The translations under genes and the position numbers were made by a program. 64,000 nucleotides of DNA from Kondoa subrosea (Eukaryota): contig BCIN01000008.1 of assembly GCA_039545335.1 (NCBI GenBank), positions 755,528 through 819,527 on the forward strand, given 5' to 3'. Shown here in pieces: positions 4,455 through 28,439 of this stretch (within the stretch, counting starts at the first letter, position 1; each line of letters starts with the position of its first letter). The notes below the pieces were generated by a model, which did not search any database, had not been told where the DNA came from, and saw only the letters and a list, made by a program, of their open reading frames with translations.

Positions 4455-4726
4455 GATGGAAATGTAGTCAAAATTCTCTTGGTCGCCATCAAGAGAACGG
4501 AAATCAGATTGTTAATGATATTGCCTTTATTGGCTCTAATGTTTATTTGAATTCGTTTCCACTCCGACCATCTCTAGTACTTTCTTTGCATGAACGGGCA
4601 AATTTGTTACCCACGCATCAGCTCTACATTGGGAAACATCAGCTTGAGTGCTTGCTGTATTTGTATTGTGGACGTACGGTGCTTCACCATTTAGTCAAGC
4701 TGTAACGACCATCATGAATGAATGCT

Positions 4727-5868: not shown

Positions 5869-6120
5869 TTTGTCGAGATAAAGGCTGCTTTGGGTCAAGC
5901 CAAGGTTGGACTCACTCAACGAGTCGGAATACAGTAGCGCCTCATTCTGGTATATCTGCACTGCTCTGAGTGGACTCGCCGGCTTGTGTACGCCTTCCGC
6001 TGCGCTGAATTTCTCGAAAATAAGTTGATGCCCTCACTTACTTGCCTTGCCTCGTGAAGCGATACTATCGACCCAATATACTCTACACAAAGTAAAGCTG
6101 AAGCTCTGCTGCTGTCCCGT

Positions 6121-6715
6121 ATGAAAGGACCCAAGAGGTTGCAACGAGCTTTCGCGTGGAACAGATCTAGAAGGACAGGATGGCTATACTTTCGTCAAAG
6201 CCAGATTGATCAGATTCAAGAATGGCTGCAGCATGTAAGGCTCCTTTCTTCTCATACCTCAAGCTGCGAGATATCATTCTGTCGATCATTTATTGCTCTT
6301 TCTGCTCGGTGCGACGTCCTCACAAACGATTTCCAATCACTAGTTTTCCTGTTCGTCGTCCGTTCGGGCAGCCGCTGGGTAAATGGCTTGCGAAACCTAG
6401 CTAGAACGTTGTTCAACGGGATGTCTTCGGTTCGTGCGACTTCCCAGCGCATATGCCGGTCAAAAGTGCTTCCATAGCGAGAACGAGTTCTTATCTCGGC
6501 TTCGCTTGGGTCTCGCATTTCTTTGTCTTCCTTAATTTCCCACTCGTCACCAAACATGATGCTTATTTTGCTCTACGCTTATCTTTTTTAGCTCCAGCTC
6601 AAACACTCTATTGGAAGAATTGGCTGTAAATTCAGCTACCTCGTTCACAGCTTTAGGCATCTAGACCGACCATCAGATGTCTCATGTCGTGCTCAAGAGC
6701 GTGATATTCGCTAGC
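6121..6715 (+). pseudogene. Truncated/degenerate paralogue of the 7173-9119 gene (N-terminal part only), retaining a long intron 6235-6591
   Basis: 'YFRQSQIDQIQEWLQH|GTAAGG' matches 'YFPAHQIQQIQEWLRN|GTTAGT' of the 7173 gene at the same intron position; the next exon only weakly matches after a frameshift (LYWKNW vs IFWTDL) and stops. Confidence 0.6.
6340..6470 (+). ncRNA. Conserved structured intronic element, copy A
   Basis: CTTCGGT 6425-6431 and GCCGGTC 6455-6461; CGACTTCCCAGCG..TATGCCGGT shared with copy B; inside 357-nt intron 6235-6591. Confidence 0.6.
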
Positions 6716-7172
6716 GTTTAAATTCGCAGAAACCGATCCCCTTGACCAATTACGGCCGTTCAGCTCATCTAATAGGCCCAGACCCAACACACCGCATAGT
6801 CTACTAGTGTGTCTTGCTATGCAATGATGTTGCTTACCCTTGCCTGCTGGCTCTTCTAGCCCCAATTTTCTCGCATTTGTCAAATCCCTTGTTTGTCCTG
6901 CTCCTTCCTTCTGCACTGTGTACGAGTAGTTCAGGGGTATTTAGCTATTGTTAGAGCGTGCCTTTTTGGTCTGGAGCGGTTTCAAATTTCGATTCCCACT
7001 CTGTTTCGTATCTGACGCGCCTGAGGTGACGTGATATCTTTAGCTCGCATTCCTCATTCCTGTCAATGAACCTCCTATCGAGTTCGTAGAGGCGCTGTGC
7101 TACTCTTTTCCTTTCTTTTATACCTTCCCTTCACTTTCCTTTCTCGTTTCGCGCTCTTTCTCTTATTCAGGC

Positions 7173-9119
7173 ATGGCTTTCACTGCCGCTACCACGAGCA
7201 CAGCATCAAGTACCTCTCCCAACTCAGCTGATCTGAATTCCGAAGTCTTCACCAATTGCATCTCTACCCTTGAATTCAATAAAGCTTGTCTCACTCATTT
7301 CGCGGCGACCGTAATCATCAAGCACCAGCCCAGAACAGAAGTTCATCTGCACGCTCTAGTCAACAACATTTTGCAAGATGTCATCGGTGAACTTGAAGGA
7401 CAGATGAGCAAAGGCAGAGATCCATATTTTCCGGCGCATCAAATACAACAAATCCAGGAATGGTTGCGCAATGTTAGTATCCTTCCGTCTGTCACTCCAG
7501 TCTGCGAGACCCAAACCCATACACTCCACCAATTGCTCTATACCATGCCTTTAAAGACAGCTTCAGATCCCTAATTCTCTCGTCCGCCGTTCTGTGGGAA
7601 CGGAGGCTGTGTTGTTATGGGTCGAAGCTGAGCTTTGTGCATGGTCGAATGGACTGCCTTCGGTCGCACGACTTCCCAGCGTGTATGCCGGTTCCAAGTG
7701 TAACCAATCGTGAAATGAGCTCGCCTTCCTGATCTTCTTGGGTCTCGCAGTCTTGGCTTGATTGCTTTCCTTGTTGATTACGAGTAGAAGCTGATTTTGC
7801 GTTTGTGTTTTACTAGATCAGAGCGCAGAACATCTTTTGGACGGATTTGCGAGAAGAATGCCAGAGAAATCCAACACATGCTCTTTCAGACTTCTTCAAG
7901 TATAGAACTCCAAGACAGGTTCGTGTTCTCTTCTAAAGTAATGATCGCTACTGAGATTGCCTCCCACAGCCAAAATCCACTTCGGCTATTGGACGACCTG
8001 ATCGCAATGGTAGATCACAAGCGAAGCGTGCAGGTCTACCAATGGTAGTCATTCCTCTGATCCTGCCGCAGTTATCGGAAGCAGGTGAGTCTCTTTGCTC
8101 CTTCTTCTGATGTCTTTATCTGACCACACTCGAGTAGATTTAGGCACCTTTACTCCTCGGCAATTTGCTCATGTCACGTTAGACTTCCTGATGATTGGCA
8201 CCGATTCGATGAGGCGATCCCTTAATCTTGCGCCTGAACCTTCTTATGGCTTGATCATCCCTGGTGTCGAGCGACTCGAATCACTCTTCAAGCGAGATGC
8301 AAATAATGTGAGAGATTCAGACTGGATAGAGCAGACGGATGCTGCAAAGCTTTTCCGAAGGCTTGAGAGAAGAAGGTCAGTCTTCATTTCTGCTTGTCGG
8401 CAGGCCAGAACTGAATTGCTTTGTGCAGAATGGTGACACAAGATACCAGCTCGGAGGGAAACTTCATCAGAAACATCTTCAGCCACGGAATGTACACCCA
8501 GGGAGAAGAGACGCGCGGCCTGTTGAGGCTGATTGCTTCATTCATTGTGCTTTGCGGGGAATTGAGTGAGTCTTGCCCCTTTGACGGCTTCTCTGACATA
8601 TTCTTACTATTGGGCGCAGATGACGACATCGGCTTGCAAGAGGTCTTCAAGCTTGAACGCGAAATCATTCAAGAGCGTACAAAACCTGCAGCAGCTATCT
8701 CACCTTGTACTCCTACGTCTCTCCGCTCTGCCACTCCATGCGAATCAGACTTCGATCAAGCTTCTTTGGCTTCTTCTGATGTCTCCTCCTCTGAAATCGA
8801 AAGCATCTCATCGGAATCAAGCATCTCTTCTGCAGCTACTTCAGCCATTCCAAGTTGTTGCTCTGCAAGCTTGTCAAACACGAGTCTTCCGATCGTATCG
8901 TCTCCGATATCAGCTTTTGATGAGGAAGAATTCTTGGAAGAAGTAGCTGATCGCGAAGAGATCGCACTGTGGCTGTCACCCAAGTATGCTTCCCGCAAGC
9001 GCAAGCTCGATGAGTACGAGGAAGAAGATGAAGTCGCTGTAAGATCGCCGAAGAGATCTGGAAACAGGGCTGTCCGGTGGCTAAAGGGAGTGTGGAATGC
9101 ACTCATCGACTTCTCGTAG
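7173..9119 (+). CDS. Uncharacterised protein with HEPN-like RNxxxHG motif, Ser-rich tail and RKRK NLS-like motif; about 6 exons, long first intron 7473-7816
   Basis: Exons join in frame (7173-7472, from 7817 IRAQNIFWTDLREECQRNPTHALSDFFKY, DLGTFTPRQFAHVTLD.., SEGNFIRNIFSHGMYTQG at ~8451-8503); clear paralogue at 17.3-19.6 kb. Confidence 0.75.
7558..7700 (+). ncRNA. Conserved structured intronic element, copy B
   Basis: CAGCTTC(7558)/GAAGCTG(7624) stem, CCGTTC-TGTGG-GAACGG hairpin 7587-7603, TGC-CTTCGGTC-GCA ~7655-7668, GCCGGTT 7687-7693; intron also closed by a perfect 13-bp inverted repeat 7502-7514/7738-7750. Confidence 0.7.
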
Positions 9120-9349
9120 CTGAATTGTATGTATCATCTGGGTCTTGTCGATTAGCTGTACAGTGTAACATTGCTTAGTAATCATATTCAAACTACATGT
9201 TCTTCTTACTTTGCTCTTCGGTCGCCCTCTTTGTCATGTGATGAGAATCTTAATCTGGAGAGCATCGCTGTTCTCCAAGAAGGCACAGATCTCGTAATGC
9301 AGTCGTTGCTTGTTTTCAACAATTTGCAGGGCTCTTGGCTTGTGCGACG

Positions 9350-10255
9350 ATGCACCAAAGAAAACGGTCGCTTACCTTGAGCTCTTCCGACTCCGATGAT
9401 GGATCATCTGTAGCTGTCAAGTCCAGCAAGTCTGATACACCTCTAGCGTGAGCTGCAACATGGCCACACAAAAGTAAACAATCTCATTCGTCTGCATTAC
9501 TCGCAGCCCTATCTCTTATGCTTGCACACTTCCTCCTACCTGCTCTGCATCGAAACCTACAGTCTTTGACTCGTACCCTGCTTTGGAAGCACATCATGCA
9601 TCGCATCACGCTTTCCTTTGCACGCTAGCGGACTGCAGCAAGATCTTTCCAGACGAGCGATACCTGAACTTGCATTTCAGCGAATGTCATAATCCTCTGA
9701 TAGCTGTCAAAGCTGAGAGGGGCGAGAAGACTGTTTGTTAGCCATGGCTCTGGCAAAAGTGTAGAGCTAATTCTTCAAGCACAGTTTGCGTGCTTCGAAA
9801 CGACATGTACTAGGAAGTTCGCAACCCCGAAAACTCGTCGACTCCATCTTATTGATGCACATCAGTATCCCAAGCAAGTATGTTTCCCTTATCTTTGCAT
9901 ACATACATGAACCTCGCTCATTGCGTGCCAGTTCTACTTCTCTTTGCCTGCTAAAGGTTTGAACGATCTCTACAAGAAGTACGGATCGGCTGTCAGTCTA
10001 GTTCGACCAGATTGGAAAGCTCGACCCGATAAAATGGACGATTCTCGATCTACTTCATCTGCTTCAAGAAGTCCAGAACCACTTCAATCGCTCAGTGAAG
10101 TACCTAAACAGATAGAAGAGAATACTGTCGAATATGTAAAGGTGCAAGAGCAGAGAGAGGATCATGAAATGGACAGATTGGTAGACAAGTTCAGCGCAAG
10201 CAGGATGTTTGTTCCCAATCAGATTCGATTTGGCAAGAAAGGAGCAAAGAAGTAG
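9350..10255 (+). CDS. C2H2 zinc-finger protein, ZNF511-like
   Basis: Exons read 'CTLADCSKIFPDERYLNLHFSECHNPL..ERGEKT|FACFETTCTRKFATPKTRRLHLIDAHQYPK'; start codon approximate. Confidence 0.8.
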
Positions 10256-10761
10256 CTGGCTTGTTCGAGCGTCGACGCAGCTTTAAAGCTGTTCGATGTA
10301 GTAGTAAAGTAAGCGGTGCGTCTAGTCTCTCAGCCTGTTGTTGTTCAGTTACAACTCTGAAGCGTTAGGCGACTGTACGAATATGGTCACCTGATGGATC
10401 AACGTTCACCATCCTCTTGCCTGCGAGGCCACGTTCACACGAAGACTGCTAGCTTTCAAGCTCCCTCCTTCCGAACGTGCAGATATTCAGAGATAGCGGA
10501 AGCGCCAAAATAAGGATCATTTAGCGGCCGGTCAATTGATCGAGTTGAACAAGAGAACCACTGTTTCGCAGGACAAACCACTACTGATGGCTTATGGAAT
10601 GGCTGAGACCGACTGAGAGTGCTCGAGATTTCTAGCTCGTCTGTGACGGGTTTGGACAATTATAAGCTATTGTACAACTTCAATGCATGTCTAGTCTACC
10701 TATACCTCTTTCTTCATCAGGCATGCTGGCTTGTCAACTGCCCAAGCAGACCACAACGAAT

Positions 10762-12148
10762 CTATATCACAACAGCTGAATCTTTTCTTGCTATCCTTTC
10801 TTTTCTATACAGCAAGAATTGTGCAAGCACACAGAAATCGAGCGCGATCGTTCCTCTAAATCATTTATATTAGCTCTTGCCTCTTTGTTGCATTGTTGAG
10901 CCTTACATTGATCCTACTAGCCATGAAAGGTTTATCGAAACATGTTCCATAGTTCGAGAAGGGATCAATATCGACTGTGAGTGACCATCGCTTTCAGGTT
11001 CCGCAAAGACCCAAAAGAGATAAAGGGAGCTCACAGCAGCGAAAGTCACATTTCCCATCAATGCAAAGAAAAAGAACATCAAGCTCAAGCCTTCACATTT
11101 CGTTGATCGGTTCTTGATTAGTTGAGGAAACCTTGAACTGACTGTCCATGCATAGAACCTTAACAAATATTCACAAAAATCGAACAAAGAACAGACGATA
11201 GAGTATAGCAGAGCACCACCCCACAATCTGTCAATACGTCCACAGACTTAGCATCTCGAAGGTGCTAAATCTGCTAACCAACTGACCTGAGCTTTATCGT
11301 CCCATATTTCTTTCCCTCTAGGTCTAGGATGTATATCGCTAGGTTTATCCAAACTCCAACCCAATACACCAAGCAAGACGACAAAGCTCAAACAAGCTAC
11401 ATAAACTGCTATTCTTTTCCAATTCGAACTTGTAGATCTTGCTGTGGTAGAAGAAGAAGAAGGGATGAGAGGAGTAGTTTCAGATGTCGATAAAGGAGTT
11501 CGACGGTAATAATAGATCTGGAAGAGAAGGACGAAATCGCAGAAGATGTAATAGATCGCTAGATCTGCAAGAGTGCTCCTTGCTCAGCGATGACATCGCT
11601 TAAGCAGAGAAGATCACTTGCATGTCTAAAAACACTGTCAGCTTTGATAGACCATTGCGAGAAGAGAGAATTCACTATTGTAGGCAGTAAACCTTGCCAG
11701 AAAGCTCCTAAGAAATTGGCCAGATCCGCCAACAACCACTGTACACCTCTCGAGATGAGAAACCGATCTTTAGATTCTGATTAAGATACTCACTATCGCG
11801 ACGAAAAAGACTGATAGACCTTCTCCACTCTTGTTGGTATAGTTTTCGTGTATCTAGAATAGACGGACATAAGGAAATCTTGACGCAAACATTTTCAGGG
11901 AAAAACTCACTTGAGGCTAGAAGAAAAAGGAAACGATATAAACAGGAGAAGAATGCAAAGACAGAGAAACAGACTTGATAGACTAAGATCCAGAAGGCCT
12001 AAAGAGAGATCTAAGTATCAGGAAGTGCTCCGACTAATTTGCCAATCACTGAAATACGGACAATTGAGAGCCAACCAAAAGTAGAGGCTATTCTGTGCAG
12101 ATCTACATTGCCGCCAATCGCCTGCAACAAGTCAACAGTACTCGACAT
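10762..12148 (-). CDS. PQ-loop vacuolar amino-acid transporter (Ypq/PQLC2 family)
   Basis: 'PQIHENYTNKSGEGLS', 'WLLADLANFLGAFWQGLLPT', 'RFPQLIKNRSTKCEGLSLMFFFFALMGN'. Confidence 0.88.
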
Positions 12149-12212
12149 CGCTGTCAAGCTCGTAACTTATAAGTTTGTTTGATTTTGGTCCTGTGCAGCG
12201 AAGCAAGCAATC

Positions 12213-15200
12213 ATGCTTTCCCGATCAGCAGCTGCTAGAGCTGTTCAACCAAGTAGATTCACAAGATGTCACGCAAGACTAGCTTTGGTTTCAGCGACTC
12301 GCGTTCTACCGAGTCTGAGACGAGGACTAGCCACTCCCGCTAATGGTGTGTCCCTCTGTCACTGTACCAGGGAATACGTTGACTGATACGTTGTGGTTAT
12401 ACCAGAACCAGCTAAAGCTCCTTCGCCGAGTGATTCATTCGTGAGTTTCAACATAATGCACAACTTAAGAGGCAGTGCTTATATTCCCCATATTTTCTAC
12501 TCACAAGGCTACATCAAACAATGCCTACTGTATGTCATCATCTGCTTCATGAGCGTTTCGAGCTCTAAGTTATCTTGTTTGCAACATACAGACGCCGAAG
12601 AAATGTACCGACTTTGGCGAGGTGACAGACAATCCGTTCATCCTTCTTGGGATGTGTATTTCTCTGGCATGGATCAAGGTTTGAAGAGTGAAGACGCTTA
12701 CAGACCACCACCTTCTTTAGTCAGTATGCCTACTCCTGCTGATGGTGCACCTACAATGTCTATTCCATCTGGAGGTGGAGAATTGGAAGATCACATGAAG
12801 GTCAGTAACTCAAATTTGCTTCTCTAGAGAACAAGCTAACCGAACATCATTAGGTCCAATTATTAGTGCGAGCATATCAAGTCAGAGGTCATCATAAAGC
12901 GAAATTGGATCCTCTAGGCGTAACGGCAGCAGATCTGAATGACGAAATACCTAAAGAATTGGAACTAGCGCACTATGGATGGACTGAGAAAGATTTAGAT
13001 AAAGAGATCGCTCTCGGTCCTGGTATCTTACCTCGATTTAAGAACAATGGCCGAACAAAGATGAAGATTAGGGAGATCATTGATGATCTTGAACGCATCT
13101 ACTGCAAGTCGATTGGTGTTCAATACGTACATATTCCTTCAAGAGAACAATGTGACTGGATCAGAGAACGACTGGAAGTACCTAAACCTTGGGCCTACTC
13201 TGTTGAAGAGAAGCGATTAGTTCTTGATCGATTAATCTGGTCAGACTCCTTTGAAAGATTCGTTGCTTCAAAATATCCCAACGAAAAGCGATTCGGTTTA
13301 GAAGGTTGCGAAACTTTGATTTTGGGAATGAAAGCTTTGATTGATCGATCGGTCGATACTGGTGGTGTGAAGAGCGTTGTTATTGGTATGCCTCATCGTG
13401 GACGACTCAATGTTCTAGCCAATGTTATTCGAAAACCGAACGAAGCCATCTTTTCTGAATTCAAAGGCTCAAATGCAATGGGTGATCTTGCCGAAGGTGG
13501 TGGTGATGTCAAATATCATTTGGGTGCAAATTACGTTAGACCTACTCCTTCAGGCAAACAAGTCGCTCTTTCCTTGGTCGCCAACCCTTCGCATCTAGAA
13601 GCTGAAGATCCAGTCGTTCTTGGTAAAACTAAAGCCATTCAACACTTCGATGGCAATGACGATATCGCTTCTGCTATGGGTGTTTTGCTACATGGTGATG
13701 CCGCTTTCGCTGGTCAAGGTGTTGTTTACGAAACAATGGGTTTCGCCGATTTGCCAAACTATACTACTGGTGGAACCATTCACCTGATTGTCAATAACCA
13801 GAGTGAGTCTTGTTCTTTCACATTGCATATACCAACGTTGACTCCAAACGACAGTCGGCTTCACTACTGATCCTAACCAAGGCCGATCTACCCCTTACCC
13901 ATCTGATATCGCCAAGTCTATCGATGCTCCTATCATTCACGTCAATGGTGATGATGCTGAAGCTGTCTCTTTCGTCTGTCAACTTGCTGCTGATTGGAGA
14001 TCCACTTTCCACAAAGACATCGTTGTCGATATTGTTTGCTACCGTCGGCATGGACACAACGAAACTGATCAACCTTCCTTCACGCAACCTTTGATGTAGT
14101 AAGTAACGCCTCACTTGCTTGTCCTTGTTCTGGGGGCTGATGTTATAATTCCTTTTTAGTGCTGCTATTGAGAAACATCCGCCTACACTTGAAATTTACG
14201 CGAAAGCTTTGGAAGAAGAAGGAAGTTTCACTCAAGATGAAATCAAGAAGCACAAGGATTGGGTATGGAGCACTTTAGACAAAGCTGTCAGTCATATTTC
14301 CGCTTTGCAAAGGCTTTGCTTAGCTGAATGATGTCTCGACAGTGGGAAGCATCTAAAGACTACCAAACATCTTCTCGAGAATGGCTTTCTTCAGCATGGG
14401 AAGGGTTCCCTTCGCCAAAAGAACTGAAAGACAATGTCTTGACTGCTTACACTACGGGAGTCAAGCCTGAGACGTTGCAAAGCATTGGAAAAGTCATCTC
14501 AAGCTGGCCAGAAGGTTTCGAGCCACACAAAAACTTGCAACGAATTCTCAAAAACCGAGGCAAGACTATTGAAGAAGGCAAAAACATTGATTATTCTACT
14601 GCTGAAGCTTTAGCTTTCGGTACTCTTGCACTAGAAGGCAATCATGTTCGTCTTTCTGGTCAAGATGTGGAAAGAGGTACTTTCAGTCAAAGGCACGCTG
14701 TTCTGCACGATCAGAAAACCGACGACAAATATACCGCTTTGAACAACTTGTCTCCCGATCAAGCGAAACTTATGATTTGCAACTCTCACTTGTCCGAATT
14801 CGGCACGCTTGGTTTCGAGTTGGGTTATTCACTAGTGGATCCCTCTTTGCTGGTCATTTGGGAAGCTCAATTCGGCGATTTGTCAGTTATTTTGTCTGCT
14901 CTTGTTGAGTATCAACTGATCAGATTCGAATATTGACAGCGCAAATAATGCTCAATGTATCATTGATCAATTCATCTGCTCTGGCGAGAGGAAATGGTAT
15001 CAAAGAACAGGTCTTGTTCTAAGTTTACCTCATGGGTGCGTATCGCATTCCGATTTGCCCGCACTGGGCTAAGGAATTACGCTTACTGCACAGCTACGAC
15101 GGTCAAGGTCCTGAACACTCTTCAGCTCGTATTGAGCGCTTCCTTCAACTCTGCGACGATCACCCATATCAATACCCTTCGGAACTTGCTTTGAGCCGCA

Positions 15201-16099
15201 CAACGCAAGATTGCAATATGCAACTGGTCTACCCAACCACTCCAGTCAGTTCTGTCCGTTTTTTTCATTGAAAATAAAAGTGATTTCTTTGATGGCAGGC
15301 AAATGTCTTCCATGCTCTGCGTCGTCAAATACATCGTGATGTGAGTCCGAGCAGAGAGATAAAGTCAGTGTGTATTGATTATCTCTTTGTTTGGCTTTAC
15401 AGTTCCGGAAACCGTGCGTTGAGCCAAGTTTTGAACCGATATGCTTACTGACATGTACTTGGCAGTCTCATTCTCTTCTTCTCCAAGAGTCTTCTGCGTC
15501 ATCCTCTAGCTCGTTCTACCATAGAGGACATGTCCGAAGGCACTCATTTCGTTCCATACATTCCAGATCCACATCCAGAAACGCTCGCACCAAAAGAAGA
15601 GATTCGAAGACACATTCTTTGCTCAGGACAAGTCTACTATGCTCTCTTGCAAGAAAGAGACCGAAGAGGAGATGAGTTGAAGGACATTGCTATTTCTAGA
15701 GTGGAACAGCTTTCACCTATTCCTTATGCTCTTCTTACACCTCATTTGGATCAATACCCAAATGCTCAACTGATGTGGGCTCAGGTGTGTAAAGCTTCTC
15801 GCGATGCAAAGAGAAAAGAAGCTCAAATGTTGTTTGGGTTAACAGGAAGAACCAATCAACAACGGAGCATGGAGTTATATGCAACCTAGATTAGAAACAG
15901 CAATGGATCAGACAGAGAACCATAAAGGCAAGAGAGTGGTGTATGCTGGTCGTGGACCAACTTCATCAGTTGCTACTGGTTCGTTGTCAATTGAAGTTCT
16001 GCTCGATGAGTGCTCATTCTCTTTTGATTTCCAACAGGTAACAAAGCTGCACACAAGGCCGAAACGGAGAAGATACTTGAGGATGCTTTCGCCGCGTGA
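12213..16099 (+). CDS. KGD1: 2-oxoglutarate dehydrogenase E1, mitochondrial
   Basis: 'KRFGLEGCE', '[11 protein letters not shown]', 'ANPSHLEA', '[10 protein letters not shown]', '[16 protein letters not shown]', '[14 protein letters not shown]'; Arg-rich N-terminal presequence. Confidence 0.97.
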
Positions 16100-16340
16100 G
16101 ACGAGACGAGACTTGAGTTCTGGATTGGATTGGATTGAGTGTCGTGATTTAGCAGAGCTAAATGTCATGAATTCTGTGGGAAATGGGCTTGATGGAATTA
16201 CACGGGCTCTTACTCAATGCATTTGCAAATTGCACTGTTGCACTGTAACACAATGTGCTAGGATGGGATGGACTGGCTATAATTTCATCATTTGTTGACC
16301 TACTCTTCCTTCCGACCGCGACTTTCTCACGCTTTGATCG

Positions 16341-17226
16341 ATGTCTACCAGTTCGCCTGAAGCTGAGAGGACTGAGCCATCAGCTAAAGCTCTAGGCAAA
16401 AGGAAAGCTCAAACCCAATCACCCGCGCCTGGATCAGAAACCGAATCAGAGCAAGATGTCCCTTTGGCCTCTTATTCATCAGCGAAGAAGAAGCTCAAGC
16501 CTACTACAACTGCTACTGTACCTCACCTGCAGCTGGATACACCTTCTAGCTCTTCCACTTACGACGCTTCTGAACTCATTCAAGAACCAGGAGATGAGGT
16601 CGTCGAGCCTTTATCAGCTGTACCTGCTCGATTAGCTCAAGACGATACACCTGTAGCAACAGCAACCGAAACTTCTGGTTCTTCAGATGATGAGATTCAG
16701 ATCATTCATTCTTCACCTCGTCGCAAACTGAAATCTCAAGCTCAAGTAATCTTGGACTTGACTGACGAAGACGATGAGGAAGGTGAAGAAGATAGTAACA
16801 AGAGTAAAGTCAAAGAGAATTTGGAAGGTGAAATGACTTTGGCTCCTTTTTATGCTACTACTTGTCCGATTTGTTTGGGTCAACCTTCACCTTTGGTAGT
16901 TACTCGTTGTGGTCATACTTTGTGCGTTTCTCTTCTGAAATGAGTAATTTACATTAGCTGAGGAAGATTGCAGCTGCGGATCATGTCTCTTTGCAGCACT
17001 TTCAACAGTCAATCAAGGTTATGAATACGAATACCGTTTCAACCCAGCTTTGATGGCTAAGAAAGAAGCAGCTGCTATTGGTACTTTATTGGATGGTCCT
17101 TGTCCGGTATGCAGAACTCAATTGACTGGTGGATGGGGTAAAGCGGCTAGAGGTTTAATGTGGAAAGTTAAGAGAAGAAGGAAAGGGAGAAAGGATGGAA
17201 AGAAATTGGATCAGGAGATTTTGTGA
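16341..17226 (+). CDS. RING-finger protein with SUMO-interacting-like motifs (Slx8/RNF4-like)
   Basis: 'CPICLGQPSPLVVTRCGHTL|CGSCL...CPVCR'; upstream hydrophobic-acidic motifs 'DDEIQII' and 'VILDLTDEDDEE'. Confidence 0.75.
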
Positions 17227-17460
17227 TTGGTTACTGGCAAGAGGATGATGTATGTATGCTTCTGCGGCTGCTTGTTTATGCTCGCTCATTATATATATAT
17301 TCAGTCTGTGTTGCGAATTTGGTTTCTTTTTCAGAATGCATTGTCAATCGAAACAGAAGTCAATGCTGGGCTCTTATCCTGCCTCGAAGTTCAGCAACAT
17401 CATCGATAGTGTGAGTCAACCACTTCTTCCTGTAGCGGCTCGGAAAGTCTCTCTTCCTTT

Positions 17461-17632
17461 AGCTGTGATCGATCAAAGTCAACCTGTCGTTCGTCTGTGG
17501 GACGTTGGATATGTGACTGGACTCGGCAGCTATCTTGTGGCCCTGCTGGAGCTTCTCTGCAATTGCCTTCGGTTGTACTCTACACAATGAACGTGTTGGC
17601 CGGTCATAAAGTGCTTCGGGAGAGCTACAGCT
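17461..17632 (+). ncRNA. Conserved structured intronic element, copy C
   Basis: In 326-nt intron 17411-17736; AGCTGT/GCAGCT and AGTCA/TGACT stems, CGTC-TGTGG-GACG, CTTCGGT 17567-17573, GCCGGTC 17599-17605. Confidence 0.7.
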
Positions 17633-17860
17633 GTTTTCGTATATTTCTCCTTTTTTTGGGTTTTACTTTTGCTGCCGCTGCTTCTTATATCCTTTCTTGC
17701 GTTTCCGTGTCTGACTATGTTTCTGGTTGTCTTTAGGGTCGTCCAAGCTAAGTCAATAATACAGTCGCTGAAGGCAATGCTCGATATTTTCCGCGACAGG
17801 ATTTGACTTCTGGACGTTTTCCTTGAGAGGGTTAGTGCTTTCTTTTTGCTGCCTATCTTC

Positions 17861-18031
17861 AGCTATGTCCGATCAAAGTCATCCGCGCATTTGTCTATGG
17901 GACGAATGGGAGTGTGACTCGACTCTACTTAGCTACTCTTTTGGCTCGTTGGAGATTTCTTGAGATTGCCTTCGGTCGCACTCTTACCAATTAATGTGCT
18001 GGCCGGTCAGAAAGAGCTTTCACGAAAGCTC
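17861..18031 (+). ncRNA. Conserved structured intronic element, copy D
   Basis: In 293-nt intron 17831-18123; AGCTATGT/ACTTAGCT, AGTCAT/GTGACT, CATTTGTC-TATGG-GACGAATG, CTTCGGT 17970-17976, GCCGGTC 18002-18008, GAGCTTT-CACG-AAAGCTC 18014-18031. Confidence 0.72.
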
Positions 18032-20594
18032 CAGCCCTTTTTCCTTTTCTTTTTACTGCTGCCGCTGCATTTTTGCTTTCGTGTCATTCATCTCAGCTGA
18101 GTGATTTTTCTTCGGGTCTGTAGCCTCAGGATCGTCAAGCTATCTTCCGCAAGATTCGACGACAAGTACAAACGGATGAGACTCACCCTCTGCATGCATT
18201 CTTTCAGTACTCTCGACATGTTCGTCTTTTGTCCTGCATAATCTCTACTTGGCTGACCTTTCTTGAACTAGCCCCGCACTACTGGAGCAAAGCCGAAACC
18301 AGGGCGAGAGAACAGGATATCACCTAGCAAAGATGCTAAAGGCAAGAAGCAACAAGCTATATCTGGTATGCTTCATGCTTCTTCACACTTCAAGTGTCTT
18401 ATTGTGAAACCTTTATAGCGACTAGAAGTCGTCAACCTGAAGAAGCTGAAGATATTGTTGCACCAGCTCCTTCTGTTCCTATTGCTTCTTCTTCCGCAGT
18501 TCCCGCAATGTCTTCTAGTGAGGCTTCTCCACTTACTATCTGAGCAGCTGCTAACATTCTCTTCCAGATCTCAATGAAATCACAGCTGAAGAATTTGCTC
18601 ATCTGATTTTGGATATCATCATGGTCATCACTAAAGCTCTGCGGAAAAAGCTCAATCTACCTGTCGCAAATTCCTATCGTCCAGTCATACCGGACCAAGA
18701 GCCACTTCGCTTCCTCTTCACTCGCAAACCGGACGGCACTCGAGCTTTCGATTATATAGATCAGGAAGATCTGATTGCTCTGCTGCGACTAGCTAGAGAT
18801 AAAAGGTCAGCTCTTTCTGATACTCAGATCAACATGGACTCACATTGCCTAAATAGACACATCGACGAGGACATGTTCAGCGAACAGAATTTCCTTCGCA
18901 ATCTCTTTTGTCATGGTACTTTTACTCAAGGCGTAGAGGCTGGCGCGGTCCTCCGAGTGATCACTGCTGCAATCATTTTATGCAATCAGCTTGGTCAGTC
19001 CTTTCCTTGCCGGTCATTTTAAGCAATTCCTCATTTGCTCTTGTTTTTAGGTGATGTAGAAGCTCGCAAGAAGATCTTTGAGCTGGAAAAGAACGTCGTG
19101 CAAAGACATTGGGAAAATCTACCTTCGACCCAATCTTCTGGATCTTCTTATGCTTCTTCTGCATCTTCCTCAACACCTTTAGAAGTACTCACAATAAGCA
19201 CAGAGTCTTCTTCTCCCTCCGACGCAGACAGCGATAGCTCTTGTATCGATTCGGCTCCGAAAGCGATACCTCTTCGCGGTCTAGCACCTCTTCTACCACA
19301 TCACTCAACACAACAATTAGCTCTGCAGCATGCTCTTGTTCTCATATCGATTATACAGTCGTCGATGAATCAGAAGAATGCGATCAAGTCGCTCAAATCT
19401 TGCTCTCTGCCTCTTCCTCTCGCAAACGCAAGTATTCAGAAGTGGTAGAAGAAGAGGAGCAAGAGGAAGAAGGAGAAGCAGGAGTTGTCCGTTCCAAAGC
19501 AGTTCAGACACCTTTTAGCCCAATCCGATACATCAAGCGATTGAAGAGAAGCATTGGTGCTGGAGTACAGGAGATCGGAGGAGCGCTGAAGAAGATGGGT
19601 GAAGCAGCAACGGATTTCTCGTAAATTTGCATTCTTTGTAAAGTATGGTTGTTAAGTTTTCTTGTATTTACACTGAAGAGAATCATATTTATATCGTTAA
19701 TGTAATATCATGCACTTACATTTGTTTGCTTACCTGTTGATATTGTTCCCTCTGAACCAGACATGCATATGGGTGTCTTGCTCAAAACCCAGAAACAGTG
19801 ACTTACCGAGAGCATGGCAACATATGTATAATGGCATAGGCTCATGGTAAGAAAATGAGCACGATTCCTCAGAAGTCATGGGCTACTGCCTAGAGCTGCA
19901 GCTACACAAGAAGCACTCAAACACATAAGAAACACTCGAAGAAAGAATACGCCTCGTGAGAACATGAAGGTATAGAAAGAGAGTTCTGGAGATTGATTGC
20001 GAAAATACAACCAGTAGAGAGAGGCAAGAAACGCAACGAATGGACGATAGAGACATGCATCGAAGATTGTATGGAAAGGTGAAGAAAACACTTGCATCGG
20101 GAAGCTCTATGAAGCTAAGCAAACTCACACAATGCAAGAGAGACAGAGAGTCGTCGCTGAGAAGAAGAGCCTCTTCCCTGCCAGCAGTTCTTCCGGTCCG
20201 GCATCCGACCTTCTGTGCTTCGGAGCTGCGACTCGTCGAGAGATGTCAGCGATGCTGTGACTGGTGAATATCCTACGACACCTATATCCACTCATCAGTA
20301 CCAGATCCGTCGCCTGCAAGGTCAAACTTCGATTGACAAAACGCTTTGTTGTCGTCCCTTCGTCGCGCGCTCAGGAATCGCTTGAACGCTGCTCAGCTCC
20401 CCCGGCATAGCTGGTAGCTCTCCTGTACAGCAACTACGAGACTCTTACTTCGCTATCCTCGCGGCTTCCAGTGAGCGACCTGTCGACAATGCACAGTGCT
20501 CTGCAAGTTCGATTCAAGTTTCTGCCCTCTTAAGAACCTCTCTCTTGCCTCTGCCATCAACAATCATATACATACAAGTCCGTAGACATAGCGC

Positions 20595-23500
20595 ATGACA
20601 GCAGAAAGCAACAACACAATCAACAATCCATCACCCGGAAGAAGTGCTGGTGCTCCTTCCTCGTCTATAGCCCATTCTCGACCTGCTTCTATAGTTGGAG
20701 CGCAGTATCGCAGTGTGCACGAGCATCGACCAAGAACTCCATCAAGCTCGAGTCAATTGGAAGGCAATATGGCTTCAAATTCGAATCAAGGCAAATCGCC
20801 AATCAATAGTCAAAGCAATAGCAGCTCTCGTTCTTCGCAGATCTACTCACCAGAATCATCTAACCTCTCATCCTCACCGCGACGGAACTACTTCACTCCA
20901 CCAACGAATTTCGAGGACGATTCCGCTTTGTCGCCTCGTTCAGTTCAGCAACCTCACTTTCCACCAGGCCGCTCTGAGTCACCACGAAGTATGTCGCATC
21001 ATGTTTCTCCTCAATATTCGCCCTCCTATGTTCCGACAGCTTCTACATCTAAACCTCCTTCACCTACTTCTAATCTTCAGCCTCATAATCACGATCATAC
21101 TCAACATGATCCAGAAACAAGTTCATCCAAGCTCAAAGCAAGTACAGGCGATTCTCGATCGGCTCCTCGAAGAAGACAATCTTCTGGTGGATCATCAGAA
21201 GGAAAATCTTCCTTGTCCAAGAGGGATGCTGCAGGAGAAAAGGAGAAACAAATATGCAACAAATGTCAATTACCTATACCTGGTCAATTTGTTCGAGCTT
21301 TGGGAACAGTTTTTCATCTCGATTGCTTCAAATGTCAAGACTGTGGGAAAGTGGTTGCCGCAAAATTCTTTCCTGTTGATGGACCACAAGGAACTCAGTA
21401 CCCTCTCTGCGAAACGGATTACTTTAGAAGACTGAATTTATTATGCGCGAAATGCGGTGGTGCTTTGCGAGGGTCCTATATCACAGCTCTAGGTTCGTTG
21501 TCGAGTTGATGTTTGCTCCCATGAGCTAATCTTGACCATGCAACGAACAGATATGAAATTCCATGTCGAGCACTTTACATGTTCGGTCTGTCCTACGGTC
21601 TTTGGTCCGCAAGATTCTTACTATGAACACTCTGGAGGCGTCTATTGTCATTATCACTACTCAACTCGTTTCGCTGTAAAGTGTACAGGCTGTCAAACAG
21701 CTATCCTCAAACAATTTGTTGAAATCAATCGATACGATAAAGATGAACATTGGCATCCTGAATGTTACATGATCCACAAATTCTGGAACACCAAACTTGC
21801 TCCTTCTGTTGCTGCTCCAATACGCAAAGGTTCAACAGATCTAGAAAAGGATCATAACGCTATAGAAAATGGAATAGCGATACCTGAATTAGCTCAAGGT
21901 TCTCAACCTTCAGATCCGAATGCTATTATGGATTACCGAATTCAAGAAGAAAGAGAAACATCTACTAGTCTAAAAGAAGCTCAACGGATGATGGAAGAGA
22001 AAGTTTATCGGATCTGGACTGTCTTGAGCACCTTTGAAGAATCCAGCGCAGCTTGTATATCGGAAATGCTTCGATATGTCAGCAATGGGCAATTCATGGA
22101 AGGCGTCAAGATGGCGGAGAAGTTTGTTTTGCATGTGGAAACGCTTTTCGCTGGCATTGATGATTTGATGGCTCGCTTTCGGTCCGCAAATGCTAAAGGT
22201 GCGTGGTATCTGGTTCTCGGCTGAAGGTCTGCTAATGGAAGAGAGCACATACAGAACCCTCCCATGTTCGCGAAGCTAGAATGCTTTGCAAGAAAATCGT
22301 CAACTTCTTCTCCCTTCTTTCCCATACTCAAGAAAATGGTACACGCAAGATTGGTCTACCTCAAGAACTCTTATCCCTGGTGACGGGTCTAGCTCATTAC
22401 CTCAAAATCCTAATTCGAATAGCACTAACTTCCGCCTTAAGATTAGAACGCGAATATGCCAAACCTACAGCAATAACACATTTCCTTAATCGTTTGGATC
22501 GTCTTGCTGGTGATCCAGACGCGTCTAAACCTACCCCAGTCTCCGTTCCCGCTTTACCTGGTGCTGAGGCGCCTTCACCGACTGATTCTGTCGCTTCCGG
22601 CCCTACGAAAGTCCGAACTTTCGGCTATAAGAGTTTAGCAAGAGGAGTAGGCACTCTTGTTGGTCAAGGAGAAGCTACTTCAGACCTTTGCGAAGTGTGC
22701 AAAGGAACGATAGAAGAAGATTGTGCTCGCTTAGGTACTTCTCTCCGATGGCACCTTGCTTGTCTTCGCTGTACATCTTGCGGAAGATGCGGTGGTCGGA
22801 CGAGAGAACAGCAAGATATGCCTCAAGAAACTCTTCCTCCTATTATTACTTTGCGAGAGTTCAGGATGGAACCTCCAAGGCAGGACCCTAACGCTCTACA
22901 TCTTCGACAGAGATCTGGAAGAACCTTCTGCGCTTCTTGTTGTAGTAGAACTGGCGTTCAATTGCGAGAAGGCTTTGAACCAGTCACAAGGCTCGAACAA
23001 TATGCTTTTCTTCTTTGCGTTGCGCTGAATAAATTGTACGCCCTGCTCAAGCAAAGAGGTGTTGTGCCTCCTTCGCCTAGTGAGTTCTGTCTCTCTCATC
23101 AGCACGAATTTATAACCAACATGGTATTGCAGCTGAATTTACAATGGAAAGCGAAGATGGGCGATCAGTCTATGAAGCATATCGAGATTCGGCAGATATC
23201 AAGCGCATGAAGTCAGTCAATCTCGATCGTAAGCTGTCGACTACAGCCAGAATACCGAAACGGTCGACCGTTGTTCAAAGCCCTACCGGTCGATCAGTCG
23301 AGTCAGAACAGCAACAGCAGCCTGCGCCTATACCAGACACCTCATTATCTCAACCAAAAAGTCTTCAACAGCAAGGCTCGGTTCCTTCCTCGCCGCCTCG
23401 ATCCAGCAGTAATCCTCGAGATAGGCATCCTGGCGAAAAACCGCCTCGACCGCCGCCTCTACCTCCAGATCGCTTCGTTGATCAGTCTCGGCCACACTTT

Positions 23501-25043
23501 GGCAGAAGTCTGACCGCAGTGCGAGTTGTGGACGATGGAGCACCATCACCTCAACTGGATCCTTCTTCTGCCTTTGCTTCTCCGCCAAACTCTGTAAATG
23601 AAGCTGGCATTACGTTGGCAGATCTACCTCAGGTCATGGAGGTAGAGAAAGCAAGAACAGAACATCGACCACCCCCTCGACCACCTCAAAGCATCTTGTT
23701 ATCTGAATTGTCGGCACTCGAGCTAATAGTAGTCAAGCATGCAGCAGCCCTGATGCTTGTCAGCGATACTTCTCCACTCAAGGACTTTATACAAATGGAA
23801 GAATTGATGGAGCTGGTCGAGTTCCGGAAGAACACATTTTGGGGAAAGATCTTCAAAGGCGGTCAAGATAAGAAAGTAGTCAAGAAGAAGGGCGTCTTCG
23901 GTGTTCCTCTTGAACTGCTCGTCGACAGAGGAGGCGTCGATTCGATGCTAGGCGCTGGCGCTGCTCCCGTTCGGGTGCCTACCTTCATTGATGAGGTGAT
24001 ATCAGCAATGAGGCAGATGGGTATGCAAATCTAATTGTTGCGATTCGGCTGCCTCTAAGACTTGTTCTAGATATGTCTGTCGAAGGCGTCTTCCGCAAGA
24101 ATGGCAATATTCGTAGACTGCGCGATCTGACGGAAGCATTGGACAAAGATCCAACTGCCGTCAATCTAGTGGATGACAATCCAGTCCAACTCGCAGCACT
24201 GCTCAAGAAGTTCCTCCGAGAGCTGCCGGAGCCGCTGCTGACATTCAAGATGCATCATCTGTTTATAGCTAGTCAGAGTGAGCAATCTCTCTACGTTGCA
24301 TGCCTTTAAATCTGATAAAGATGAACAGATATACAATCCACGGAACAGCGACTCCGAGTCTTACATCTCTTATGTTGTCTTTTACCCAAACCTCATCGCG
24401 ACACGATGGAAGTGGTCTTCATCTTCCTGAAATGGGTCGCCTCTTTCGCGCATGTGGACGAAGAGACTGGCAGCAAGATGGATCTGCCCAATCTCTCGAT
24501 CGTGATGGGTCCCAATATCCTCTACGCTAAAGGCAAGGATCCGTCGAAAGACGACAGTTTTGCTGGAATCCGAGCAATACAAGACCTGCTTGAAAACCAA
24601 GATCGCTTCTGGCAGGTGAGTCGGAATACGTCTAGATCAAGTCGCATTGCTGACTCTTGACGCCTTCTATTCACAGGTTCCAGCTGACATCCGAGGCGTC
24701 TTGGTGAATCAAGAGCTGCTCAATAATCCAGAAGTCCTTACCTCCAAAGATATCTTGAAACATTGTGGGTCTGGTCAATTGCAATGTTGAGTTCCCATGC
24801 TGACATTACTGTGCAGGTCGAGATTACATGGGCAAAATGAGTCAGCAACAGCAGCAGCATTCGCCTTCGCATCGAGGAGAAGTACAGCATCAGCATCCTC
24901 ATTACAACGCAGCACCTCCTTCCTCTAACGCCAATGGTCGACCTTTATCTTACCAAACTCAACCTCAGCATCCTCGTTCAGCCCAGCAACCTCTTTATCG
25001 ACCTAATACAGCTGATCAACTGAACCATCGACCAGCGTATTAA
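20595..25043 (+). CDS. LIM-domain Rho GTPase-activating protein (Lrg1/Rga1-like)
   Basis: Multiple LIM domains (CNKC..FHLDCFKC, CAKC..FHVEHFTC) and RhoGAP 'VEGVFRKNGNIRRL..AALLKKFLRELPEPLLT..SKMDLPNLSIVMGPNIL'. Confidence 0.93.
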
Positions 25044-25201
25044 GGCTTCTCTCCTTTCCCGTATTAGTGTTATCAGCATTTCAGGTAGTCATTGTTTGGT
25101 TTTGGGCGTGTTTAGCATTTATTTCTCTTCTTTCGTTCTATGTATGTGTAAAGGAGAGGAAAACTTGAAATGGCATCTTTAGCATTCAAACAGGTATCTT
25201 T

Positions 25202-26124
25202 CTATGACTGGGCTATCCGCTTCTGGTATGCTTGCCATCCCGCTGTTTGGTATCTCTTTGCTTCTTTGATCATTTGATCCGTATCATCTCCTTTTCCATA
25301 TATCCCTCTCCCAACAATGATCACATCACAACCGCTTTCTCTGATGACTTGATCTGGTGTCCTGTACACTTGACCAATCCCATCTCCCGTACTGTCTAAC
25401 CCAACTCCAGGTGTCAAGATCAAGAAATCTTCTTCCCCTGCTCTCTCTTCATGTACTTTCTTCATGGCAATGAAACCAATCACAAAGTCTTTATGTCTCT
25501 TTGCCATTTCAACTGTTGCTTTTGTGTAATCACCCGAAGCCAAATTTCCACTACTACTCATTTCCGCCAAGAGCAAACAACCTCTATTGAGTGGTAGACC
25601 GATTGAAGATAAACCAGAAACGATTCCATCACCTGGAATAGCGTGTGCGTTTGTAATATGAGCCCAGGAAGCGATTTTATAAATTCCTGATCCATATTGT
25701 AATTTCACTGTATTGCCTATTTATATATGCAGTCAAAGCAATTAGGACAGAGGAAGAGAGATGAGAAAGAAAGCGTACCTATATCTGCAAATTTCCGATC
25801 TTCGAAAATTAAGAAATTGTGCTGTGCTGCTAAAGATGTTAATTGAGTTATAAGATCTTGATCGAAATCTTCAATAATATCAATATGAGTCTGCGCATGA
25901 GTCGTAAGTGAAATCTTGCAAGGAACGAAAACAGCGATGCTTACTTTGATCAAACAGACATAAGGTCCAACAGCGTCGACCACTTTCAGGAAAGCTTCTT
26001 TAGTTGAGATATCCACTGAAACGCAAAGATTGGATTTCTTGGATGCGATGATGGAGCATAGCTGGCGAGCTATAGCGCTGGAAAGGCTCGAAGAACGAGA
26101 TTCGTATGTTTGAGTCGACTTCAT
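25202..26124 (-). CDS. URA3: Orotidine-5'-phosphate decarboxylase
   Basis: 'SNLCVSVD', 'KTHID', '[11 protein letters not shown]', 'LLLAEMSS', 'ILTPGVGL', 'DVIIVGRGI'. Confidence 0.97.
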
Positions 26125-26471
26125 GCTCAGGAAAGAGGGAAAGAATGGATAAGGGCAGGCCAGGGAAGAGCACAGTCAAGGAATGAGGCCGACAGGCAGT
26201 GATTTGGTACAACGTAGGCGATGGAGCAAGTCAAAGAAAAGAAAGACAAATCAATGTCAAGAAGGAGCAATCCGAAGCGGCTGTGACTATGTAACACTAC
26301 GGAACCTACGCCTGCTGAAGACAAGTCCAAGACAAGTCCACTCAGACTTAGCAAGCGTCTAGAAGTCCCAAGCTGGCGTACAGACATCTGCCGCCTTCGG
26401 CCGGAACTGCATGACAACGCGTTCGCTGTTTGTCGCTTCTTGCTCTTGCAACAGAGCAGTACTACTACACA

Positions 26472-27509
26472 ATGTCTTTCAATCGCTCTTCCATCAACTT
26501 GCGTGAATCTTCAATCCTTCCAGTCTTGGAGACCAATGAGCGTGTCACCGGTTATGCTGGTCTAGAGATGTTACTCTCTTCTACTCTCCCTTCTTCTACT
26601 GCAAAGGACTTGAGAATTTTGGATAATGCGTCTGGAGCTGGAATTCTCCCTTCTCTCATTCTACAATTGCAAAAAGCTCAGGCTATCAAAGGAGAAGTCA
26701 ACATGGTAGCTGCCGATAAAGACCCGATGTACATCTCACAATTGGAAGCGAGGAAGAAGGCGAACGCTGAGGAATGGAAGAAAGTCGAAATCAAGCAATT
26801 TGACATGCAAGTAAGCAGTCTTCCATCTCTTCTTGTGAAAGTGACACTGATGTTTGTATAGACACCACCTTTCGAAGATAATGTATTCGACTATGTCTTT
26901 GCTAATATGGGTATCTTCTTCTGTCCTGATGATATTGGAGCTATGAAAGGTTTGCTCTCTTTTCCTTGATGATATTGCATATGTCTCACTGTTGTCTTTT
27001 CCATACAGAAACGCTTCGAATCCTCAAGTCAGGGGGACAAGCTGGTTTCACTTCGTGGGCTCAGATCTCGTGGTGTAAGTCTCCCTTTTTGCTTTCTGCC
27101 TTATACTATCTGACTAAGGATTTGGATGAAAGATTCTATGGCTGTCGCTGCTCTATCAGAAGCTCATCCAACTGCACCACAACTTCCAGAAGTCGCTAAA
27201 CTATTTCCGGGCGGATACAACGACCCATCTCTAATTCAAACCAAATTAGAGAAAGCAGGTTTCAAAGAAATCGATATTCATCAATATGAATTCGCTCCTC
27301 TTATTGAAGCTGAACCATTCGCTGAAGCTACAGCTGGTTTAGTCAATATTGCAATGAAACGATTCTGGAAATCAGAGGAGATTGAAGAGTTTGGTGGACC
27401 AAAAGTGAAAAATGTTCTTTTGGATTATTTGAACAAGACTTATGAGAATGGAGTTTGGGATGGGAAGATGAAGTGTATTGTCAGTTTGGGCAAGAAGGGA
27501 AAGGATTAG
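26472..27509 (+). CDS. Class I SAM-dependent methyltransferase
   Basis: 'LRILDNASGAG' motif I, 'VAAD', 'FDYVFAN', 'LRILKSGG'. Confidence 0.85.
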
Positions 27510-27769
27510 CAGTAGCGCACTAGTCAGGACAATATAGCTCTGAAGTCGTTCAATTCACTTCCATTACAAGTTTGCATTCAAATCTATCTTCACTATTCCC
27601 ATACATACTACATACGTTCAATCTCTTGCGCATATCAAAGCCATCACCCTTCAAACCCATCATACGCATGATTCGCATCAAAATAAGGTAAAGCACTCTT
27701 AGAGGACCATCCGCTGACGAGACAGTCATAGATCCAACTAGCCAGAAACAAGCAAAAACAGAGGGGAAG

Positions 27770-27947
27770 AAGCCTTTCCTGAGACGCTCTTTTTGACCGG
27801 CCAGCACATTGATTGTGTAGAATGCGACCGAAGGCATTCTCGAAGGAAAGCTTCAAACAAGGCCAATGAAGTAGCTAAGTAGGAGCTCGAGGCACAAACC
27901 CATTCGGCCCATAGACAAATGTGCGGGCGACTACGATCGTACTTAGC
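27770..27947 (-). ncRNA. Conserved structured element, copy E, in a putative 266-nt intron (27714-27979) of a short or non-coding transcript
   Basis: Minus strand: perfect GCTAAGTA/TACTTAGC stem, CATTTG..TATGG..CGAATG hairpin, AGAATGC-CTTCGGTC-GCATTCT, ATTGGCC/GGCCGGT; closely similar to copy D. Confidence 0.7.
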
Positions 27948-28439
27948 AGAATGTAGGCGAAGAAGAGCGAGAGTCGTACACTGCATGTAGCAGCCACGAC
28001 AAGCGCGAAGCAAGAGCTCGAGTGACGAGTCTTGGAGGAAAGAAGAGAAGGCGCAAAGGGGTCCGATTTCAGGAACGAGGATTGTGAGCTTGTAAGCTAG
28101 CAGCTGATTCTCGAATGCGGAAGACAATAAGCAAAGGGTTGGGCTATAAACGAAGCGAAGCCTTGACAGACCCATTCCAGAAGAAGACATGTATGAGAGA
28201 TGGAATGCATGTGTGTGTAGACAGAAAACGAGATGAGACTTGAGGAGTGAGTGCTTATTGATCTGTAAACACCGTCAGTACCTTCTAATACCAGACGTAC
28301 TGCAAACCTTTTTTGAGGTCCGCCGAACCCTATGATAGTCAGGCAAAATGTCAACAATGATAGTGCTCATGGTCACTTTGCGAGCTCACCTGACGTTGAA
28401 CGCCCCAGCCATGCGCGTACTGCGAATGAAAGCCTTAGT

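Follow-up and report, generated by a model that had tools for sequence, protein, structure and literature searches.

The stretch of 64,000 nucleotides (nt) analyzed here is from Kondoa subrosea (assembly GCA_039545335.1, contig BCIN01000008.1, positions 755,528 to 819,527 of the forward strand). It is called the window in the following, and positions are counted from its first nucleotide. The window contains five elements, designated A to E (Table 1). They are copies of a single, so far undescribed module of RNA, which measures about 170-190 nt and is read on the sense strand. The module is unknown to Rfam, and the intronic RNA family that it represents is real and undescribed. Copies A to D are located in long modelled introns at the loci of an orphan protein family, of which two full-length members (gene 2 and gene 3) are found in the window, and copy E stands alone. 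The favored reading, to which a probability of about 0.4 is given, is that the module is a cis-acting intron element which controls the splicing of the first intron.

A preliminary description of the window, made from its letters alone, had claimed five homologous elements, and these were borne out in the 64 kb by alignment, by nhmmer and by a covariance model. The mean column identity in a mutual alignment of stretches A-E is 64%. In blastn comparisons C, D and E are 74-79% identical over about 185 nt, and A and B are 81% identical over 47 nt, which divides the elements into two subfamilies. An nhmmer profile, which is self-trained in that it was made from the five elements it then finds, gave exactly five matches in the window, at 6336-6476, 7562-7700, 17462-17627, 17862-18029 and 27773-27947 (the last on the minus strand), and the best remaining match had E=0.82. 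With C, D and E alone as input, a covariance model recovered B over its full length (E=9.5e-4; score in Table 1) and A as the 3' hairpin only (6419-6472, 7.6 bits, E=1.6). When applied to both strands of the 64 kb, this model found nothing besides the five elements at E<=10, that is, no sixth copy. The proposed check against known Rfam families came out in favor of a new family, as the covariance models of Rfam 15 gave no match at gathering score over the whole window. When the element regions were scanned at E<=5-10, three matches at chance level were obtained, either located elsewhere or with E>1, and further scans gave none. No transfer RNA (tRNA) genes were found in the window, which leaves a tRNA-like origin unsupported. 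An exact-pattern scan of metagenome contigs for relatives returned one match, on a high-GC bacterial contig, which was judged to be due to chance, and the same scan of viral contigs returned none.

All five elements fold into two domains on the sense strand. About 75 nt make up the 5' domain, a long and irregular hairpin in which the closing and the apical stem covary. The closing stem reads CAGCUUC/GAAGCUG in B, AGCUG/CAGCU in C, AGCUA/UAGCU in D and GCUAAGUA/UACUUAGC in E; the apical stem reads CCGCCGUUC/GAACGGAGG in B and CAUUUGUC/GACGAAUG in D, and the apical loop is conserved as UGUGG or UAUGG. The inner helix of the 3' domain is nearly invariant (GCCUU-CGGUCGCAC ... GUGCUGGCCG ... AAAG-GC), with a conserved asymmetric internal loop and a variable outer stem. 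Several G-U pairs are invariant, and the structure is therefore assigned to the strand of the host gene. Of the 233 cells of the model-fitted alignment, 91.0% are paired (82.8±1.5 in shuffles), and 18 of the 58 pairs show a compensatory change on both sides (6.8±2.2 in shuffles); none of 500 shuffles reached either value. Slid controls gave 35-44% paired cells and 1-7 pairs changed on both sides. The conserved structured RNA that had been claimed from the letters is thus upheld as a two-domain fold of the sense strand.

All exon and intron structures given here are gene models derived from the sequence. In these models the introns that host A, B, C and D have lengths of 357, 344, 326 and 293 nt, respectively, and the other ten introns of the same genes have lengths of 50-57 nt. 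The contrast between long GT-AG host introns and neighbors of about 50-60 nt, which had been reported for all five elements, is therefore retained for A-D in modelled form; it was not retained for E, around which a candidate GT-AG intron (about 27699-27977, minus strand) lacks recognizable flanking exons. A, B and D each follow a homologous phase-0 exon end, in agreement with the common intron position that had been proposed for these three, and B and D occupy the same phase-0 intron of two paralogous genes. The introns of gene 2 measure 344, 51, 53, 53 and 54 nt, and its spliced model is open in frame. Gene 3 is 32% identical to gene 2 over 146 query residues (tblastn, E=2.6e-24), and the intron positions are shared.

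The 420-residue model of gene 3 requires a first intron of 713 nt (17411-18123), which houses both C and D. Exon 1 (phase 0) is joined directly to 18124, and the modelled protein ends in the same three residues as that of gene 2. C and D had been described as lying in separate introns of the family; they are instead explained by a tandem duplication within one gene, and an in-frame TGA interrupts the 94-nt "exon" that separates them. This pseudo-exon is a product of the tandem duplication and a candidate poison exon. An earlier interpretation of the 5' part of gene 3 as frameshifted was replaced by the tandem duplication together with the in-frame TGA. To include the conserved C-terminal tail, gene 3 also needs an extra intron of 50 nt (19279-19328) at a place that in gene 2 belongs to the last exon; one of the paralogues may have gained or lost an intron here, or the model may be in error.

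The match between gene 1 and the end of exon 1 of gene 2 is limited to 18 amino acids (tblastn, 61% identity), and the start of the exon downstream in gene 1 is out of frame. Gene 1 is a partial tandem duplicate rather than an independent member of the family. The placement of A-D in one orphan family, as first described, holds accordingly for B, C and D, whereas for A the host is only this partial duplicate. Because both junctions are of phase 0, the 38-codon exon of gene 1 is possibly an alternative first exon of gene 2. A tblastn search of the window with both spliced proteins found no family members beyond gene 2, gene 3 and the 18-residue fragment. The query for similarity and fold searches was a contiguous read-through piece of 155 amino acids, including 17 intron-derived residues. 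A word-index search among longer proteins found no homologues of this conserved piece, phmmer against 1.84 billion representatives gave one match, to a repeat protein judged spurious, and tblastn against plasmids gave three matches, all with E>=0.2. The host genes are an orphan, lineage-specific family of this basidiomycete yeast-like fungus.

The pairwise alignments indicate that the copies multiplied by gene and segmental duplication, not by transposition. The unit 6202-6624 aligns over its whole length to 7440-7850 (A/B), and 17345-17750 and 17762-18142 form a tandem duplication (C/D); in both cases the duplicated unit consists of an exon end, the intron and the start of the next exon. The identities of upstream flank, core and downstream flank are 0.62, 0.66 and 0.68 for A-B, 0.60, 0.75 and 0.72 for C-D, 0.13, 0.63 (z=3.3) and 0.50 for B-D, and 0.26, 0.79 and 0.55 for D-E. 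The core is regarded as constrained because B and D are similar in the core alone, with flanks at shuffle level and proteins that are 32% identical. It was preserved, whereas the intron around it and the larger part of the protein have lost recognizable similarity. In the simplest history, the first intron of an ancestral gene already contained the module, and gene and segmental duplications followed during which the core was held by selection; E may have originated either by a duplication whose flanks have decayed or by insertion of the core alone. The tie between RNA and gene family that had been put forward stands in so far as four of the five elements lie in family loci. E lies outside them, and the linkage is explained by co-inheritance through gene and segmental duplication, not by independent co-occurrence.

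Table 1. Elements, host genes and introns in the window
Feature	Position	Strand	Description
Gene 1, short ATG exon	6122..6234	+	38 codons; upstream of intron A; exon end homologous to the end of gene 2 exon 1
Intron A	6235..6591	+	GT-AG, 357 nt; contains element A and the 3' zipper arm 6506-6517
Element A	6330..6500	+	most diverged copy; 3' hairpin well kept, 5' hairpin merely foldable; nhmmer match 6336-6476, E=1.1e-25
Gene 2	7173..9119	+	intact open reading frame of 463 amino acids in 6 exons: 7173-7472, 7817-7918, 7970-8084, 8138-8375, 8429-8565, 8620-9119
Intron B	7473..7816	+	344 nt; first intron of gene 2; encloses element B
Element B	7550..7728	+	full two-domain fold; covariance model 19.3 bits; minimum free energy -59.9 kcal/mol
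Gene 3	17336..19627	+	paralogue of gene 2; intact open reading frame of 420 amino acids in 8 exons, stop-bearing pseudo-exon skipped: 17336-17410, 18124-18219, 18272-18365, 18419-18517, 18568-18805, 18857-18993, 19051-19278, 19329-19627
Element C	17452..17637	+	in distal tandem unit 17345-17750; covariance model 175.9 bits
Pseudo-exon between C and D	17737..17830	+	94 nt; each of the three frames has stops, the homologous one an in-frame TGA
Element D	17852..18041	+	in proximal tandem unit 17762-18142; covariance model 212.8 bits; minimum free energy -57.1 kcal/mol
Element E	27766..27957	-	stand-alone; 79% identical to D over the core, flanks unrelated; covariance model 170.7 bits

Under the favored reading, the module would act in cis on the pre-mRNA and control the removal of the first intron. 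It may also decide which of the duplicated first exons or the stop-bearing pseudo-exon is used, and would probably work by binding a protein, possibly the product of the family itself, as in autoregulation. A switch of splicing is proposed because the placement of the module, the zippers, the alternative pairing at the branch point of B, and the duplicated first exons with the pseudo-exon all fit it; a conserved structure in an intron of the gene, as in autoregulated introns, is present. The zippers include an exact 12-mer that occurs at 6506-6517 and 7738-7749 and as its reverse complement at 7503-7514. Intron B has a pair of 16-nt arms (7499-7514 with 7738-7753, 94% complementary) which encloses element B. 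As the 12-mer is shared, the 5' arm of B can therefore pair with either 3' arm, that of A or that of B, and these long-range pairings would compete with each other across the duplicated first exons. At C, GUAGCGGC (17432-17439, identified by eye) has two possible partners in GCCGCUGC, one at 17674-17681 and the other at 18061-18068. Within intron B the 5' strand of the closing stem (7553-7564) can pair instead with the branch-point region (7787-7798), and the 3' strand (7615-7631) is repeated at 7778-7794 with 82% identity, so that a mutually exclusive pairing which would hide the branch point is possible.

Several points weigh against a role in splicing. The introns, the exon skipping and the regulation are models only. 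The branch-point pairing is clear in B only, a weak one of 6 bp was seen by eye in D, and neither A nor C has it. The core is retained in E outside the family, which would not be expected from a purely host-specific role in cis, unless the host of E is co-regulated. The pairs A-B and C-D are alike in flanks and core; they are therefore segmental duplicates and uninformative on selection. The covariation was obtained from five sequences, of which A is partly aligned, in an alignment fitted to the structure, and most of the compensation comes from B alone. The folding energies are modest in comparison with shuffles (z=-1.93 for D and -1.90 for B), as 7 and 9 of 200 shuffles, respectively, fold as well.

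Control of splicing by intronic RNA structure has precedents in fungi. Thiamine pyrophosphate (TPP) riboswitches in fungal introns switch splicing by alternative pairing with splice signals, and several introns of yeast ribosomal-protein genes, those of RPL30 and RPS14B among them, have autoregulatory structures. The module resembles the TPP riboswitches as a structured RNA in a fungal intron; here, there is no Rfam TPP match and no ligand candidate, and the hosts are without known metabolic role. The module is also like the introns of yeast RPL18B and RPS22B, whose conserved structures are needed for splicing autoregulation (PMC13232506). In both cases a conserved predicted RNA structure is located in a spliceosomal intron, and the yeast structures act in cis on splicing (PMC13232506 and PMC7732827). 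The yeast hosts are ribosomal-protein genes, whereas those described here belong to a private, fast-evolving family. The present module also differs in its size of about 190 nt, in its two domains, in its occurrence twice per locus by tandem duplication, and in having one copy outside the family. Few conserved structured RNAs are known from the introns of fungi, nearly all of them in ascomycete model yeasts. The present module, from a basidiomycete lineage that has been poorly sampled, is large and under clear constraint, and the orphan family to which it is tied has retained the catalytic signature of HEPN RNases. The case also shows how tandem duplication of exon and intron creates alternative first exons and a stop-bearing pseudo-exon around an RNA module. 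If the protein binds or cuts the RNA of its own intron, a new autoregulatory circuit would be at hand; otherwise the module would be one more intronic regulatory RNA or non-coding RNA.

The main rival of control in cis is a stable RNA of about 190 nt that is derived from the intron, trimmed after splicing, and active in trans, with the hosts as mere carriers in the manner of host genes of small nucleolar RNAs (snoRNAs). It is rated as rather unlikely; it better accounts for E and the degenerate hosts, without a known RNA class. As with snoRNA host genes, the intronic RNA is better kept than the exons, hosts are degenerate, and exon-intron units occur in tandem. The core is better conserved than the coding sequence, domain-closing stems are present, copies survive in a fragmentary host (A), beside a pseudo-exon (C/D) and outside the family (E), and the tandem duplication of exon and intron raises the copy number, all of which is in line with a function of the RNA itself. 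Against a function in trans, no C (RUGAUGA) and D (CUGA) boxes and no hairpin-ANANNA-hairpin-ACA arrangement were found conserved at the required places when the alignments were inspected by eye, no snoRNA was matched in Rfam, and no Rfam family at all was matched even at E<=5-10. The stable RNAs known to derive from fungal introns are essentially all snoRNAs, which also weighs against this rival. Somewhat less probable still, and distinctly unlikely, is a decaying mobile or inserted element (introner-like, a low-copy duplicated intron or a retroposed small RNA) which has no present function and was carried along by later duplications. E shares the core alone with D, as such an element might, and a 14-nt direct repeat (13/14 identical; 17839-17852 and 18046-18059) flanks the core of D exactly, like a target-site duplication; the repeat is T-rich, is seen around no other copy and may be due to chance. 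Introner-like elements likewise have introns several times the regular length (here 293-357 versus 50-57 nt), a stable predicted structure and compensatory changes (PMC3609843). Moreover, C/D fits the class of same-gene duplications with duplicated exon flanks (class SGD) of Collemare et al., and E resembles a low-copy intron in an unrelated place (class LCI) (PMC3609843). In contrast, the introner-like elements described there occur in unrelated genes as hundreds of near-identical copies and comprise the whole intron with donor, branch point and acceptor (PMC3609843). The copies found here are few and 63-79% alike, and the whole intron is not the repeated unit, as B-D and D-E share the internal core only, their similarity stopping short of the splice sites and their flanks being at shuffle level. 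In the window, copy number amounts to five in 64 kb, all within 22 kb and four of them in family loci, which also speaks against a mobile element. The presence of the module in the same intron, phase and orientation of two paralogues with randomized flanks would need either selection or an unlikely double insertion.

The preliminary description had placed the module in a system with a HEPN-like nuclease. The motif R-N-x3-H-G was found, as stated there, in both of the full-length members, as R-N-I-F-S-H-G in gene 2 (codons 8469-8489) and as R-N-L-F-C-H-G in gene 3 (18897-18917). Both genes thereby fit the HEPN motif Rx4-6H, in which the residue after R is usually N, D or H and which is located at the end of helix 3 (PMC3710099). 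HEPN proteins are further characterized by a metal-independent RNase activity for which this R and H are required. Two AlphaFold models were all-helical, with the motif at the end of a helix and followed by a loop and the last helix, at a mean predicted local distance difference test (pLDDT) score of only 38.5 and 44.4. The models and the fold search are unusable because of these scores. The best Foldseek match of the second model in the Protein Data Bank (PDB) had E=0.83, which is meaningless at this model confidence, and Csm6, HI0074 and MtlR, which are among the weak matches, were not counted for the same reason. The HEPN assignment failed in profile comparisons: Pfam (E<=1 and E<=10), PADLOC (E<=10), NCBIfam (E<=10) and a PDB profile search (E<=10) gave no HEPN match, and hhalign against Escherichia coli RnlA gave a probability of 0.15%. 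Among the language-model neighbors of the ESM Atlas, the clusters of RnlA/LsoA, Csm6 and Cas02710 reached 0.84-0.87, which is below 0.9 and provides a lead only; 9 of the 10 best named matches share the family or clan of the best one, with about 100-120 of 256 features in common. A true HEPN fold in the family proteins is possible, at somewhat less than even odds.

That the family is one of HEPN RNases with the intron RNA as dedicated partner, be it antitoxin, guide or scaffold, or cleavage target, is considered very unlikely. Each transcript would then deliver both an enzyme and an RNA that restrains it, guides it or is cleaved by it, with copies such as E marking further targets, an arrangement that would itself be a long shot. 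Bacterial type III toxin-antitoxin systems, and the abiF RNA motif beside AbiF/Abi2 HEPN genes, have a structured RNA encoded in cis. The likeness consists of a structured RNA in cis with a gene that possibly encodes an RNase of HEPN type. Unlike these systems, the present locus is eukaryotic, its RNA is intronic and not an upstream repeat array, the HEPN fold is only a candidate, and there is no match in Rfam. The motif, present in 2/2 full-length members at the end of a predicted helix, agrees with the position given in PMC3710099. The best named language-model neighbors are HEPN families, and at the family loci the RNA invariably accompanies the gene. Neither profiles nor structures support the assignment, however, the linkage is explained by co-duplication, and E lies away from any family gene. 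The longest antisense pairing of the elements with the family mRNAs is 8-11 nt, the same as in shuffles. The toxin-antitoxin and guide roles, and the antiviral or selfish behavior suggested in the preliminary description, are thus far unsupported. A HEPN-RNA system rests at present on a motif of seven residues and on co-inheritance. Such a system, if true, might be the first RNA-paired HEPN system in a eukaryote, as a nuclear, intron-borne counterpart of the bacterial RNA-paired toxins.

The genes next to the family loci are ordinary housekeeping genes. The E1 component of 2-oxoglutarate dehydrogenase is encoded at 12400-15900 on the plus strand (Pfam E1_dh and Transket_pyr); its best named relatives are from Mixia (77%), Atractiella (76%) and Rhodotorula (75%), none exceeding 80%. 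This points to a basidiomycete, probably a yeast of Pucciniomycotina type, whose nearest relatives in the protein collection are distant. A phosphoglycerate-mutase-like gene, identified by eye, is located on the minus strand at 4700-5900, divergent from the exon at 6122. Element E lies between convergent genes. On one side a plus-strand gene has its stop at 27509, and on the other a reading frame of the minus strand, part of an unrelated gene with several exons, ends at 28097. Comparison of the flanks of E with the gene family by blastn and tblastx showed no relation. For the gene upstream of E, an "intron" of only 19 nt was discarded because of its insufficient length.

Contigs of two DNA runs, possibly from the source sample, were compared with 6100-19700 at 80% likeness. 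Matches were obtained for 21 pieces from 6171 records (X1) and for 30 pieces from 9166 records (X2). There was no sign of a dispersed repeat on A-D in these contigs, a result that is weak at best since contigs show presence and not absence. The only pieces from elsewhere that matched the elements were E on D and one contig of 7391 nt on A/B. The latter has short matches to the A/B-type hairpin (6435-6473 and 7651-7702) and to the start of intron A, together with a diverged copy of 8928-9318, where gene 2 has its 3' end (56 differences over 391 nt). The family therefore has one or more further loci with an element elsewhere; this third locus apparently also has two elements. Additional diverged contig pieces cover 8928-10300, from the 3' end of gene 2 into the sequence that follows it, which indicates that this stretch is repeated elsewhere in the genome. 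Seventeen single N are scattered over 44034-46240, and the 56 bases at 44034-44089 account for eleven; they resemble ambiguity calls made where a sequence is variable or poorly resolved.

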